Part shown: positions 3,294 to 62,020 of the stretch, in pieces | Layout of the letters: every line of letters starts with the position of its first letter | Numbering within the stretch: position 1 is the first letter of the stretch | DNA from: Octopus vulgaris | Taxonomy: Eukaryota | Reading direction: 5' to 3' | DNA: 64,000 bases | Assembly: GCA_951406725.2 (NCBI GenBank) | Contig: OX597826.1 | Location: 44,206,001-44,270,000 of the forward strand | Program-made: the position numbers and the translations under genes | Notes under the pieces: model-generated | What the model saw: only the letters and a program-made list of their open reading frames with translations | What the model was told of the DNA's origin: nothing | Database searches by the model: none

Positions 3294-3541
3294 TATTAGC
3301 CGAAGTGTACAATATTATATATCTATCACGGCGGATCTTGCCAATCGGTTTCGCGCTGGGGTATAAACAGAGTGTTAAGTAACAATCCGAATATATAACC
3401 CTATGCCTATATCGGTTACCTCTGATGAGCGCAGGATTATATTATCGGATTGTTACCTAATATTCCGTTGTGTCACTGGCGCGAAACCGATTGTTAAGAT
3501 CGGACGTGATAGATATATAATACTGTACACTTCGGATAATA
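3294..3541. mobile_element. Palindromic non-coding element with hammerhead-like motif (Penelope terminal-repeat-like)
   Basis: About 3294-3415 is a diverged reverse complement of 3421-3541. The right arm reads CTGATGA(3422-28)-GCGC...GCGC-GAAA(3483-86)-CCGAT...ATCGG-AC. Confidence 0.75.
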
Positions 3542-3573
3542 TACCCACTCTATTGACAGATATGCGAGTGCAT

Positions 3574-3630
3574 CATTTTCCTGACTTATGGAATTTTAGA
3601 CATTTTCCTGACTTATGGAATTTTAGACAT
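3574..3630. repeat. 27-bp tandem duplication
   Basis: CATTTTCCTGACTTATGGAATTTTAGA occurs twice, exactly. Confidence 0.95.
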
Positions 3631-6600
3631 CTTACGTGTATATATATATATATATATATATATGATAGCGAATCGACACAATCTGCATTACCCACAATGA
3701 CTTCCATTCCGTAAGTAAGGAGGTACATAATTTACGCAAAGTTTCCTTCTGCTGTCCTTTTTACATATGAAATCTCTTTTCTTCGCTGTCACTTTTACCC
3801 ATTCGATCTGCACCAGTTTTAACAGTCCATGACACCGACCGTCTCATATTTTCTAGTTACCCCCGTTTTACTTTATTCCTCTAGCTTTTCTCCTCTTTTA
3901 ATTACCTTTCTCAAGAGGAGTCTTAGAACAAAACATTAACAACATTAAAATAGATATGTCTTCTGTTCCCTTTCTCTCCTGTGTTGATATTTTCCTCATT
4001 CCTTTTGACTTATATGTGTACACATACACACACACATATATGTATATATATACATATAAATATATATATATATATATATATATATATATATATATATATC
4101 ATATGCATATGCACATATACACCGGTGCACTCATGTTCATATAATCATTTACCAGAAACACATGCATGTGCATTCTATCTATCTATCTATCTATTATAAT
4201 ATTTTTTATTTCATTAAACATGGCTCGTAGAGTTGTTTGTAACGCAGTCAAACTGTATAGCTGTATTAATTTGTGTATAAGTGAGTGTGTGTGTGTGTTT
4301 GTATAAATACACATACATTCATATATCTATATATCTATATATCTATATATATATATACATTCGTATATATATATATATATATATATATATATATATATAT
4401 ATATATATATATATATATATATAATGTATATTCTTGATGTTTGACTTAACAGATATCTTCGCTTTTGATAATGTAAAATAGAGAAGTAACGCACACACAT
4501 TGCTTATTAATTCTACTGAGTTTACATTTCATATGGCCATCGTTTCTGTTTACATTTCTAGCTCTTTTAGTAGTGAATGCCTTTAATCTCAACTTTTTAT
4601 CTCTGTATAGTTTTTCTTTGTTTGATAGTTTATATTTTAATAGTAATATATCAAAATTTTTGACTATGTTACTTTTCTTCCACTGAAAGCTATGTATTAA
4701 ATTTCATAATATCAAATAATTTAAAAATGTTGATGCATATTCCTTACAACTATATCTTTACAGAAAAGACACGTGCTAATTAGTTAACGGTTCAATCAAT
4801 TAAGACATGTAATTATACTAATTACTCGTACATATTTCCTTCTAGATGACGTTTTAATCGGGTCTATCATATGCCGGCATCAAATATCGACAGCCTCTGA
4901 ATATATATTTTTATAATTTAAAATGTGTGCTGAAGCAAATGTATTAAGTGGGACACTTTCATAAAGTTAAAGCGCATAGATGGTGATGTACAGAATGATG
5001 TACACAAAAATGTTATAATGATTTGAAAATTGCCTTTATTTATAAAGAGAAAGCATAAATCAGACATCAGATGATGGCGAGCTTTAGTGAAAAGGGGAGG
5101 TAATCGTATGGAAAACTACCGTATTTATGGTATCAAAGATATACGTGCTTACAATATGCTCTCCAATTTCAGCAACGCATATTCAGGAGGAAAAATATTT
5201 AGAGCATTGAAGATTATTAGAAGCCCAACAGCACACATATACAAACGTCTTTTTTGTGATCGAATATGCAATTTATTCATGATTGGAGGTGTGGTGTCTA
5301 ATTTTTGTTAGAAGGTATGGCGACAGCTATAGTCGGGGTTTCTATCTTATTAGTCCTTACAAACAAATCACATACCTTCCGAGAAGAGTATAGAGATTTT
5401 AACAAGTAGAAAAATAGATAGGAAGAACTTTAGTCTGTATAATTTGCATAATTACAAATTACAATACATCAGCTAAGAATAATTGTGTAAGTTGGTTAAT
5501 AGCGTGAATTTTTAAAATTCGGGTAGCTGGTGATGTACTAAAAGACGGACTCAGAAAAATTCTCAATTTTATATATTCTCGTGCTACAGTGAAATTTATA
5601 TTCATCATGCACACTATACACAGCATATTCATAGATATTATATACCTATCCCATTAAACGAGAAACGATAAACAATTTCTAACATATGCATATAATGTAT
5701 TTTTATATAAACTTATATATTTTCTTTCACACACTGAAAGATATAATAAAATTCAGTAACCTCGATAACCCCGCCCTCTTTCTTCTAATACTACGGATAC
5801 CTCAATATCGACCCGAAAATTATTGATTTGTTAGAAGGAAAACAAAACTGAGCATGCAATGTAAATGGCTATTTGGAAATATTTCAAAACCTACCTAGTT
5901 GCCGTTGAACTAAAATGTACATTCATACCTACATATCAATATATATATATAAATATATACACACATACATATATGTATATATGTATATATATATATATAT
6001 ACATATATACATATATATAAATATATATACATATATAGGCATACATACCTATATATCAATATATATATACATATAAATACATACATACGTACATTCATAA
6101 TGCATACAAGCATACATGAAAGTACCCATAAATATGGGTGCATAGATACATGTATCCTTTCATATGTTTAGATACACATGTGAGTAAATTTACTCACACA
6201 CACGCACATCACATGCACACACGCGAACACGTGCACACATACACACAGATACATATTCATTCATTTATTCATTCATTCATTCATTCATATGTGTGTGTAA
6301 AATAAGTCTGCGTGTCTGTGTAATCTGTTATTGTTTAGTATGTGGTAGTAAACGATAGATTATTCAATGCAAGTCTATATTAGAAATATGTATTTTCACT
6401 ATATATTTTTTACCATATATAGGATAGACTGTTTACATTACTGCACCTAAAAATTCATTCTATTGCCCTAATGGTCAACCGTACTCATTAACAATCTCAA
6501 AGAAAACGAGCCGTGCATAATCTGAAGTACTATCAGCTGTAAGGTCTACATCACGAACATTTAATTCCGTATATGCAATTATGTAACCTTGTAAAAGAGA

Positions 6601-59777: not shown

Positions 59778-60210
59778 ATATGTATGTATGTATGTATGTA
59801 TGTATGTATGTATGTATGTATGTATGTATGTATGTATGTATGTATGTATGTATGTATGTGTGTGTGTATGTATGTATGTGTGTCTGTATGTATGTATGTA
59901 TGTATGTATGTATGTATGTATGTATGTATGTGTCTGTGTGCCCTTGTCTAGACAACAAGTGATGGTCGTAAATGAGCATCATTGTCATACAAGTGATGTT
60001 GCTAGTTTCCAGTCCTCTGTGAAACATATGTCTGATCATGGGGAAACTGGGCAACTAATACCTTGTTTGGAAATAGGTAGGGGTTGGTGATAGAAAGGGC
60101 ATCCAAAAAGCAGCGCCGGCGTTGTGAACATTCTCGATTACACATACTCAAAGTATGTGTTTCTTTGTTCGCTGGTTCCCTCATAACATGGGGATATTAA
60201 AACACGTTGA
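59778..60210 (+). repeat. (TATG)n tract followed by a SINE 3' part with RTE-like tail
   Basis: GGGTTGGTGATAGAAAGGGCATCC resembles the RTE-type tail GGTTGGCGACAGGAAGGGCATCC. Confidence 0.5.
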
Positions 60211-61560
60211 ATTCATAGACAGTCAACATCTATCTATCTATCTATCTATCTATCTATCTATCTATCTATCTATCTATCTATCTATCTATCTATCTATCTA
60301 TCTATCTATCTATCTATCTATCTATCTATGTATATCTATCTATCTATCTATCTATCTATCTATCTATCTATCTATCTATCTGTATACATACATACTCCAA
60401 ATATATGTATATATATATATATATATATATATATATATATATACATACATACATACATACATACATACATACATACATACATACATACATACATACTTCA
60501 AATATATGTTTAATCACATCTGTAACAACTGGTTGATGTTCGCTATTGGAGAGAAAAGAGTGGATTTAGTTTCACAGACCTACTTGTCAGACAAATGATT
60601 TGATCTGAGATCATATGCTGAAAATCATCTTTAATTAATCATTTATTATATGATGCTAAAATTATTTTGACGCTACTAGTGACCTGGACACTGACGGAGT
60701 TTCACTATAATACTTCCTAAAATATGTCAGAACTACATAAAATTCTTCCGGTCATCCGCAAATGCGAGCCCTGTGAGTCAGAGGAGTTGTTCCCAGCGAT
60801 TCTCCCTTAACATTTTCTGGGCAAAACCTATTCCATTTTGTCTGCAGGGACTATGAAGACGGTCTTAATTACAGGAAATGAAAAGAATGTAAGAATTTCG
60901 TAATTAATTACATGGACAATAAACATATACAATCCATCTCACTTCAATATGCTACTATTTCCATCAAAATAATATTATTCATAGTCGCCATGTAAAAGAA
61001 AAAGAAAAAGTTAATAAGCAAATTGTCTGGAAAAATTGATATATAATTTATTTGTTTTCACCACTTCTTTAACCCACATATATTTGACGACTTAAACAAC
61101 TATTTTCTTATCTGAGAAACGCATTATAACATTAAAGTTGCTATCAACATCACTACCCAACATTCATCTGTGGCCCATTAACGGGCAATTAATAAAGTTA
61201 CTTGATCACAACTCATTCCTCACTCAGGCTTCCACTGTAAACGCCCTTTATAGTACATCACTGTAACATAATCATATATATGTGTTTGAGGATGTGCATG
61301 TATATATATATATATAGTAAACAGAACTATAAGCTTTCACCGTATATTGATTATAAAAAGTGGTCTAAAACCAGGGCATATAAACACCGATTAACGGGCG
61401 CACTAATGCCTATTTTTTTCCGTTACAGAGTTTATATGCCCTAATATTAAATTATTTTCTATAGCCAATATGCGGTGAAGGATTATTTCTATTTACAAAT
61501 TTTCACTCGCCGCCATTTCTTATTTCACGCAGAATATATATATATATATTTATATATTAT

Positions 61561-62020
61561 ATTATTTGTATATGACGGATATTTGTCCTCATCTTGTTTG
61601 TTGTTAACACGTTTTGGCTCACGTATGTATATATATATATATATATACATGTCCGTGCATATGAGTGGTTAAGAGCGGGGGGCTACTAATCCCAAGATTC
61701 CGAGTTCGATTCCAGGCAGTGACCTGAATACTACTACTACTACTACTACTACTACTACTACTACTACTACTACTACTACTACTACTACTACTACTACTAA
61801 TAATAATAATAATAATAATAATAATAATAATAATAATAACAATAACATCGAAAAGTAGCTTAGAAATGAGCACCCAGGTTCGAAATTACCCCAAGACACC
61901 TAATGAAGGCTGGAGGGTATATATCAGCCGGAACGTTGTGTAAGCAACAAACAAGATGAGGATAAATATTCATCAAATGTAAATAATGTACGTAATTCCT
62001 CATCTCTTAAATGCAGAACT
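61561..62020 (+). mobile_element. Composite element: tRNA-derived Pol III head + (CTA)n(AAT)n + hammerhead-bearing tail, bracketed by a ~60-bp inverted repeat
   Basis: A box GAGTGGTTAAGAGCG; B box GAGTTCGATTCC (61702-13); ACAC CTAATGA A GGCTG..CAGCC GGAA CG TT GTGT (61896-61941); 61561-61619 is the reverse complement of about 61926-61987. Confidence 0.75.

Follow-up and report, generated by a model that had tools for sequence, protein, structure and literature searches.

Penelope-like elements (PLEs) leave insertions in which a 5′-truncated copy adjoins an inverted one, the tail stands on one side, and (TA)n serves as the target (PMC8557442), and two start sites of reverse transcription account for the tail (PMC11167929). 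Their minimal hammerhead ribozymes are dual motifs on opposite strands, 100-700 bp apart, with a U3-A8 core and an extra base after A9 (PMC4209133). In a lizard, Penelope repeats undergo heavy editing, and such double-stranded structures are unusually numerous in octopus, according to the available text of PMC5625713. We analyzed a stretch of 64,000 nucleotides of the Octopus vulgaris genome (the window), in which a sequence-only reading had proposed five families of non-autonomous, self-cleaving hairpin elements. These hairpins, E1-E5, match the published pattern of inverted 5′-truncated PLE insertions and are in that sense already described. Like EN+ PLE insertions (PMC8557442 and the available part of PMC3846280), they are head-to-head truncated copies with a one-sided 3′ tail in (TA)n targets, with no clear target duplication, a C-terminal GIY-YIG domain, and a hammerhead in the 3′ repeat. 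Their tails are ~45-90 bases long versus 30-40 in the described elements, which is no difference in kind. No named match to the E1-E5 families appears in the available text of these two sources.

The five local inverted repeats were found where they had been claimed, with arm identities of 78-92% (Table 1). They proved mutually unrelated in pairwise comparison (best E 0.43) and flanked by (TA)n, again as claimed. The rod-like shape attributed to them was not confirmed for E5 (55% paired in its fold) or for E2, with its long loop. A Pfam search of 91 window frames for a host gene gave no match.

Table 1. Coordinates of the hairpins, their arms and motifs, and a PLE relic in the window
Feature	Position	Strand	Remarks
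E1 inverted repeat	3294-3541		78% arm identity
E1 inverted 5′-truncated copy, Hydra-like PLE 3′ end	3282..3406	-	80% to ORF-bearing L216
E1 direct copy	3409..3636	+	one-sided 3′ tail from ~3544; 85% to L216
E1 hammerhead	3413..3505	+	core CTGATGA 3422, GAAA 3483, site after 3496
E2 inverted repeat	11448-11762/12072-12400		78%; loop ~300 bases
E2 inverted copy, Neptune-like PLE 3′ end	11448..11769	-	hammerhead 11525-11569
E2 direct copy	11767..12421	+	~650 bases of 3′ UTR; 78% to L048
E3 inverted repeat	12544-12817		85%
E3 inverted copy and 3′ tail	12493..12664	-	begins at hammerhead cleavage position
E3 direct copy, Neptune-like PLE 3′ end	12658..12820	+	96% to L123
E3 intact minimal hammerhead	12658..12697	+	U3-A8 core, 2-bp helix II, GUC site
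Decayed relic of a sixth PLE family	34150..35340	-	frames: RT thumb, GIY-YIG-like
E4 inverted repeat	54527-54912		92%
E4 inverted copy	54524..54728	-	hammerhead 54648-54687
E4 direct copy	54725..54969	+	one-sided tail from 54916; 90% to L118
E4 patch, nine A>G on - (T>C on +)	54787..54854	-	ADAR-like context
E5 inverted repeat	61558-61610/61938-61990		83%, 53 bp only
E5 short inverted stub, 3′ end	61557..61619	-	sequence comparison
E5 tRNA-like head	61650..61727	+	B box intact, A box damaged in window copy
E5 internal (ACT)n(AAT)n run	61728..61840	+	(AAT)n at same place across family
E5 3′ end, Poseidon-like PLE	61841..62021	+	hammerhead 61896-61941, two core changes

In other copies, the arms of all five hairpins are 3′ ends that run upstream into reverse transcriptase (RT) and GIY-YIG frames. 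E3 lies downstream of both frames at L123, L126, L128, L130, and L131, and 11 of 24 other E2 loci match the E3-linked RT/GIY-YIG proteins by tblastn; in the E2 relative L048, the upstream sequence contains a GIY-YIG frame (Pfam E 8.4e-05). RT and GIY-YIG pieces precede E4 in L118 and L135, its parent being a PLE with a CxxxxCxxC linker. For E1, RT/GIY-YIG linkage was seen in L211 and L216, with Atlas GIY-YIG clusters at 0.94 and the family on 27% of members. E5 is linked to an ORF in L282 (RVT_1 E 5.8e-08), with an Atlas value of 0.97 and GIY-YIG on 18-27% of members, and its RT has three weak RT matches in the PDB (E ~0.006). Only 2 of 15 parent fragments exceeded the Pfam cut-off, while the RT pieces of relatives match one another; no intact full-length parent occurs among the retrieved relatives of the five families. 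The names Hydra-, Neptune-, and Poseidon-like follow motifs from PMC8557442 only, and for the Hydra clade the N-terminal RWK and DKT motifs were not seen in the retrieved copies, none of which is full-length. Judged by sequence, E1-E5 are five distinct PLE families with EN+ parents carrying a C-terminal GIY-YIG domain. The proposal that PLE enzymes made the insertions is borne out, but the elements cannot be called non-autonomous hairpins, as all five arms are the 3′ ends of ORF-bearing PLEs. The PLE relic noted in the window is real, but has no DNA in common with any of the five arms and was rejected as their parent; it has a weak protein match to the E5 endonuclease (E 0.003).

The junctions between arms bear on how the hairpins arose. 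An unbiased E3 sample (30 loci in genome order, five (TA)n-only matches excluded) held 27 insertions, 13 with an adjoining inverted copy, and direct 5′ ends ranged from -8 to -1294. All 13 junctions were distinct, and the window junction of E3 has 2 genome copies, against 286 exact copies of its hammerhead. A fixed fold-back at helix I, considered as a rule for E3, was rejected on the same figures (2 genome copies, 0/13 in the unbiased sample). Inverted partners were present at 1/24 E2 loci, 2/18 E1 loci, and 16/30 E5 loci, and the window junction of E1 lies at +7/-13 from the hammerhead core. The 3′ tail is on one end only in E1, E3, and E4, confined to a single arm in other E1 copies as well, and E5 has two 3′ end points. 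The fixed 3′ end, variable 5′ truncation, and adjoining inverted truncated copy of PLE insertions are all seen here. Each hairpin is very probably a head-to-head pair of 5′-truncated copies of a PLE 3′ end, likely made once, during its own insertion.

In the sequence-only reading, it is the palindrome that moves, as a self-cleaving, non-autonomous RNA hairpin that PLE enzymes would copy in full. We consider this very improbable. A few junctions do recur, at 4/11 E4 loci and at 3 plus 2 of 18 E3 loci, in a sample of palindromes picked by likeness to the window copy; they fall at 3-7 base microhomologies, and their flanks and tail sides differ. In the predicted whole-element fold, the E3 hammerhead stays formed within the loop (0.93 for helix I and 0.59 for helix II), and E4 carries an ADAR-like A>G patch antisense to the element, as the copy of an edited hairpin might. 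Against this stand the two genome copies of the window E3 junction and the 13 differing junctions of the unbiased sample. Helix I and II probability is 0.0 in the folds of the other 4/5 hairpins, where the opposite arm is predicted to unfold the ribozyme, contrary to the term "self-cleaving hairpin." The partner E4 arm shows A>G at 0/82 adenosines, and the patch is found nowhere else among 511 arms. Nor is there a left- or right-arm lineage in E1, E3, or E4, where arms resemble each other more within a locus than across loci and same-side and cross-side identities are equal (within locus/same side/cross side: E4 0.977/0.954/0.953; E3 0.971/0.950/0.949; E1 0.817/0.784/0.778). The palindrome is not a repeated unit with a fixed junction, as its junctions differ in nearly every copy, and the mobile-hairpin reading is in our view wrong because junctions vary and the arms are 3′ ends of ORF-bearing PLEs. 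A classification of E1-E5 as MITEs, which are non-autonomous DNA transposons ending in long inverted repeats, accords with long inverted arms that lack an ORF and have TA at their ends, but has practically no chance of being right and is refuted by RT linkage, the arms running on into RT frames, with single arms making up most copies, unequal ends (one-sided tail), and a variable middle.

For the head-to-head insertion pairs, we envisage that GIY-YIG nicks AT-rich DNA, that reverse transcription would begin at either of two internal start sites, which would account for the tail, and that the element's RT would stop early, leaving the 5′ truncation. The second, inverted copy would be joined at a short microhomology, the inversion arising by snap-back or second priming. 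In the parent elements, to which the hammerheads belong, cleavage would act on tandem transcripts, probably through dimers or with the aid of a protein.

Nine T>C differences between the partner arms of E4 fall within 68 bases, and the PLE-insertion model leaves these changes unexplained. They may be an assembly error. A general A>G or T>C excess in paired arms was rejected, none being clear among the 511 arms beyond this one strong cluster. The sequence-only reading had suggested that such hairpins could be a major class of ADAR substrates, and the patch is possibly one direct trace of this.

The hammerhead layout attributed to each hairpin (type I order of core, GAAA, UH site, and helices I-III) is present in the majority sequence of all five families, and natural copies in every family pass the descriptor. 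Among the window copies themselves it holds for 2/5, namely that of E3, with its core at 12665 (+), and the left-arm motif of E4, with its core at 54684 (-). For each of 7 arms, the descriptor matched at most 1 of 1000 shuffles, and it gave 0 matches in each of 10 shuffled windows versus 4 in the real window, of which 2 are in E1-E5. The E1 window copy has one helix III pair broken. The inverted-arm hammerhead of E2 (core 11564) has GAAG in place of GAAA, and the direct-arm one, decayed near 12275-12319, reads CCGAAGA. The E3 hammerhead sits in the hairpin loop. In E4, the left-arm core reads CTGATGC, with C replacing A9, and in the right arm U16.1 is changed to C. The E5 window copy has core changes to CTAATGA and GGAA, while an intact E5 44-mer has 955 exact copies. 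Rfam, proposed as a check for hammerheads, gave none among the 150 of 334 window matches listed, and none for an intact copy of E5 with E values up to 10. Four hammerheads taken in isolation had uninformative free-energy z-scores of -1.5 to +0.2, and the fifth stretch missed the motif. One compensatory change in E3 helix II marks a subfamily (3/9 sequences), is likely a single event, and has a score reached by 21/500 shuffles.

Compared with metazoan PLE hammerheads (PMC4209133), these motifs agree in the extra base after A9 (E2, E4, E5), the U3-A8 core (E3), the palindromic helix III (E2, E3, E5), and their occurrence as opposite-strand pairs a few hundred bases apart. They differ in the U-U of E2, where G10.1-C11.1 is usual, in the C9 of young E4 copies, and in the 3-pair helix III and 54-base helix II arm of E1. 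The sequence-only reading was right in taking them as PLE-type hammerheads. The E2 and young E4 ribozymes may be weak or dead, because E2 is without the G10.1-C11.1 pair and young E4 has C9. Genomic copies of E3 and E5 show no clear excess of 5′ ends at the cleavage site, in small numbers. E3 copies without C at position 17 number 13, namely 6 point variants and 7 truncations (~4-5 events), whereas at a control position 3 of 4 copies were truncations; for E5 the comparison gives 3-4/30 versus 2-3/30. A genomic cleavage footprint was thus rejected, as was a GUC subfamily in E5, where most of 30 sampled copies have a 3-base deletion, not a GUC site. Within the hairpins the ribozyme motifs are passengers: most have decayed, and pairing with the opposite arm is predicted to disrupt their fold.

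Beyond the described PLE pattern, E5 has a tRNA-like head, which has A and B boxes, lies directly downstream of the reading frame, and may be a promoter of its own. Its nearest match among 35 tRNA genes is a tRNA-Arg of the same genome (z 5.9). We give an even chance to the reading that the head is an internal Pol III promoter and that most E5 copies stem from a putative short non-coding RNA of head, (AAT)n, hammerhead, and PLE end, copied by PLE enzymes in the manner of a SINE. Exact-pattern counts drop from 3743 (+3..+25) to 452 (-14..+10) across the start of the head, and from 3754 to 514 for a second pair; by the first pair, copies starting at the head are about eight times as numerous as those extending beyond it. 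Of arms with an intact A box, 24/30 begin at -7..+3, and 42/47 headed arms begin at -16..+36, some of these copies starting at the head with no inverted partner. Moreover, 30/30 ORF-side copies carry the head, whole or in part. On the other side, Rfam and ARAGORN did not call the head a tRNA, 8/49 heads are without a PLE end on either side, and 34 ORF-linked and 102 short copies show no fixed differences. A separate E5 SINE lineage was rejected because of this last result, the few skewed columns following sample selection.

A structural stop can also explain the step in copy number, because an interrupted hairpin of 10 pairs covers -14..+10 and many of the ends at -7 represent fold-backs there. 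By this account, the head is an old SINE fragment taken up by the 3′ UTR, with the drop in copy number reflecting RT stopping or folding back at the hairpin around +1 and no promoter involved; we rate it somewhat short of an even chance. Long and short copies share one consensus, as it would predict, and palindromes at pLTR 5′ ends with self-priming are described in the available part of PMC3846280. Yet the ends cluster where the enzyme has already traversed the tRNA-like part, at its 5′ edge and ~13 bases ahead of the A box, and such ends occur without an inverted partner too. The promoter reading, taken further, is that the E5 PLE would have a functional Pol III promoter, derived from a tRNA, directly after its stop codon and would thereby generate its own hammerhead SINE, outnumbering the coding form by ~8:1, which we advance tentatively, as slightly under evenly balanced. 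Like SINEs, short E5 has a tRNA-derived head bearing A and B boxes, at which most copies begin; unlike them, it forms no lineage separate from its partner, and this partner is a PLE, not a LINE. A short non-coding form does dominate E5, but with its tRNA-like head it is linear and no rod. The E5 tail, head, and ORF are covered by contigs of four runs, from four organisms, whose RNA status is a guess. The E5 copy with which they were compared is without a hammerhead.

The closest match to short E5, in the available text of PMC6765202 and PMC2770079, is provided by schistosome Sm-alpha and Sj-alpha, in which a tRNA-related Pol III head is followed by a hammerhead, in very many copies. Those are described as SINE-like repeats in tandem, and that text names no PLE parent for them, whereas E5 is dispersed, shows PLE-type inversions, and is itself the 3′ UTR of a PLE with an ORF. 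Non-LTR retrozymes (bioRxiv 10.64898/2026.07.22.740005) resemble E1-E5 in being non-coding, hammerhead-bearing, and derived from PLE repeats, but form head-to-tail tandem arrays with a hammerhead per unit, while E1-E5 are single or head-to-head. Head-to-tail tandem units, each with a hammerhead, were not found among the sampled copies, which stand alone or next to an inverted copy and only now and then form a partial tandem.

Octopus reportedly has tRNA-derived SINEs, attributed to Ohshima and Okada in 1994. Known to us by citation, these have a tRNA-derived head like that of E5 and may be E5 itself.

The main weight of these findings is for annotation: hairpins that resemble MITEs or microRNA precursors are the ends of PLEs, with hammerheads overlooked by Rfam among the matches listed. 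PLEs also lay down ready-made templates for double-stranded RNA, because roughly one in two E3 and E5 insertions in the samples has an inverted partner. If the E4 A>G patch is real DNA, it would be a genome-written trace of ADAR action. If the E5 head is a promoter, the partners of SINEs would extend to PLEs, and there would be a route from a PLE to a hammerhead SINE. E5 would then be a SINE partnered by a PLE and not a LINE, seen before it has separated from its parent, and would offer a model of how Sm-alpha-type elements and animal retrozymes arose.

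All five inverted repeats of the window (E1 to E5) were recovered by self-comparison of the masked window, with arm identities of 78% (E1), 78% (E2), 85% (E3), 92% (E4) and 83% (E5, in which the arm is 53 bases only), and mutual comparison found no sequence in common among them. They belong to high-copy families in the genome searched (G000; 2.8 Gb, 227 contigs), with 1519, 2059, 1761, 321 and 3858 first-look candidates for E1 to E5, respectively. E2 and E3 are neighbours (window 11445-12822) separated by a (TA)n run alone, as would be expected from a common targeting of TA repeats. 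A 5S rRNA-like match (window 11160-11282, - strand), below the Rfam gathering score (33.6 vs 38 bits), lies 170 bases left of E2, and a decayed 180-base palindrome (70%; window 61317-61496) lies immediately left of E5. The window also holds a tRNA-headed SINE-like repeat, with two head-to-head copies around microsatellites at 57194-57732 (213-bp inverted repeat, 88%) and a third copy at 1709-1923.

Positions of the five window hairpins and of two features within them
Feature	Position	Strand	Context
E1	window 3294-3541		
E2	window 11472-12369		
E3	window 12541-12820		
E4	window 54524-54915		
E5	window 61561-62020		
tRNA-like head + PLE end	L282:750-1450 (fetched locus); window 61650-62021		directly behind stop codon of Poseidon-like PLE
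T>C patch	window 54787-54854	A>G on - strand	right vs left arm of E4

The sequence-only reading had named Penelope enzymes as the mobilising machinery, and correctly so, as in other copies the arms continue into frames for RT and GIY-YIG, the enzyme domains of Penelope-like elements (PLEs). Longer E3 copies carry these frames, with a CxxxxCxxC linker, directly upstream; the RT/GIY-YIG proteins of the E3 parents are matched at 11 of 24 loci of E2 relatives, and one E2 relative has a Pfam GIY-YIG above cut-off. Upstream of E4 lie a broken frame for RT, linker and GIY-YIG at one locus (L118) and a GIY-YIG frame at another (L135). E1 has, about 500 bases further upstream, a frame with Hydra clade marks as defined in PMC8557442, and E5 follows an RT (RVT_1, E 5.8e-08) and then a GIY-YIG without linker, like that of Penelope/Poseidon. 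Each window hairpin aligns to its own ORF-bearing relative (76-96%). Pfam matches exceeded cut-off in 2 of 15 fragments, the other assignments coming from motifs, mutual matches and two Atlas leads. The decayed PLE at window 34150-35340 represents a sixth family; its own 3′ end (window 34150-34290, - strand) contains a decayed hammerhead-like stretch, and two of the fetched loci (L271 and L342) are related to it at 71%.

The palindrome had also been proposed as the mobile unit, with a fixed junction between its arms, and here the proposal failed: the genome contains the 40-mer of the E3 hammerhead in 286 places and the window E3 junction in two, and sampled junctions vary. The first 30 of the 286 E3 copies comprise 27 insertions, of which 13 have an adjacent inverted copy (five (TA)n-only matches being excluded), and all 13 junctions are distinct. 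Inverted partners were present at 1/24 loci for E2, 2/18 for E1 and 16/30 for E5. Even when palindromes were picked because they resemble the window copy, all 16 E1 junctions analysed were distinct (19 loci supplied, two duplicates and one other arrangement removed), the 18 E3 loci gave 15 junction types, and one junction was common to 4 of 11 E4 loci. Recurrent junctions fall at short inverted microhomologies, and their flanks and tail-bearing arm differ. The two arms of one locus resemble each other more closely than arms of different loci do, and identity is equal for same-side and cross-side pairs, as predicted by separate origins. A new mobile hairpin was therefore rejected, since junctions are variable and the arms are PLE ends; the architecture is that of the published inverted PLE insertion.

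The hammerheads themselves are real, in that the majority sequence of each of the five families carries a type I motif. Loci with at least one match to our search descriptor numbered 11/45 (E1), 9/25 (E2), 9/18 (E3), 21/24 (E4) and 15/30 (E5), a few of these matches being other families nearby. The descriptor was run on shuffles of seven arms, three of them arms that pass it in native order: it matched 0 or 1 of 1000 shuffles per arm, and also 0 of 10 shuffled windows. Having been written after the motifs were seen, it measures rarity rather than independent discovery. Two window copies satisfy it, E3 and the E4 left arm, the remaining copies having core or helix changes. Hammerheads were absent from the Rfam matches listed, covariation is thin (a single compensatory change, in E3 helix II), and a search for 5′ ends piled at the cleavage position gave no clear excess. 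Whole-element folds predict a hammerhead helix probability of 0.0 in E1, E2, E4 and E5, and retention of the E3 helices (0.93 and 0.59), because the E3 junction falls on helix I. A recurrent 3-base deletion drops the E5 cleavage triplet in about 20 of 30 copies sampled among 740 without U17 (L336, L339, L340 and others). Two more descriptor matches, at window 29044 (+) and 33823 (-), have a long loose helix II and probably arose by chance or belong to other repeats. A CTGATGA-core repeat with a TA run at its end, in two copies (82%; window 56787-57032, +, and 124-369, -), is possibly a further PLE 3′ end, a hammerhead candidate only. A dozen or more further hammerhead variants of the same layout occur in DNA flanking fetched loci, pointing to many more hammerhead-bearing PLE families in this genome.

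The copies descend from PLEs and have fixed 3′ ends, in some cases extended by a tail (an extra 3′ stretch on one arm only), variable 5′ ends, (TA)n context and many junctions at microhomology, and each hairpin would be the product of a single insertion event. According to the literature, the PLE endonuclease cleaves AT-rich DNA, reverse transcription initiates at two internal sites whose spacing equals the tail, and the PLE hammerhead is protein-assisted and dispensable for in vitro insertion (PMC11167929); hammerheads of the minimal type cleave weakly and as dimers (PMC4209133), and self-priming may give head-to-head inversions (PMC3846280).

Behind the stop codon of E5 comes a tRNA-like head of 75 bases, in which both an A and a B box are present, followed by (AAT)n, then the hammerhead and finally the PLE end. 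Compared with 35 tRNA genes from 30 loci (seven isotype calls), the head aligned best to tRNA-Arg (z 5.9), followed by Ala (5.6), which makes it likely that the head derives from a tRNA but leaves the isotype unsure. A PLE end lay within 450 bases downstream of 36 of 49 distinct heads, further off for 2 and not downstream for 11, 3 of which have an inverted end upstream. One lead is that the head may act as a promoter producing the short copies. Copy number falls about eightfold over 17 bases at the head start, so that about eight times more copies start there than run past (patterns of 23 vs 24 bases, 3743 vs 452; 32-mers, 3754 vs 514, the first with four two-fold letters). Relative to the first base of the head, 24 of 30 arms whose A box is intact start between -7 and +3, and 42 of 47 headed arms between -16 and +36 (9 of 60 loci dropped, orientation not assignable). 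However, a local hairpin spans the head start and many -7 ends are fold-backs at it, and long and short copies have one consensus in common (34 vs 102 arms). The nearest described case to the short form is Sm-alpha/Sj-alpha (PMC6765202, PMC2770079); no report of a tRNA-headed or Pol III-driven PLE was found in a search that covered neither most subscription papers nor Repbase, Dfam and the 1994 octopus SINE paper. Truncated E5 copies are also linked via the (AAT)n run to (AAT)n tails of other repeats (L182, L187, L189, L190 and L192).

Over 191 positions the E4 arms disagree at 10, and nine of these are T>C in the right arm, where 9 of 17 T are changed within 68 bases. Viewed on the - strand, these are nine A>G changes with U or A as 5′ neighbour in 9/9 (P 0.004), the context favoured by ADAR. 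Across the 511 arms compared from all five families no other T>C cluster occurs, and the patch is absent elsewhere in the genome. It may be a piece of edited RNA or cDNA written into DNA, although none of 82 adenosines in the left arm is correspondingly changed, evidence against a whole edited hairpin having been copied. Alternatively, RNA-derived letters may have entered the assembly, or the patch may be a read error, as known at inverted duplications for nanopore reads (PMC7229812), if such reads were used for this assembly. A literature search on such an ADAR trace in DNA found nothing relevant.

A term search of the PMC13282606 supplement did not find "hammerhead", and some of the five families may already be in the species lists of the PMC4209133 and PMC8557442 supplements (hammerheads, PLE families). 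The weight of the finding is carried by the E5 head and the E4 patch.
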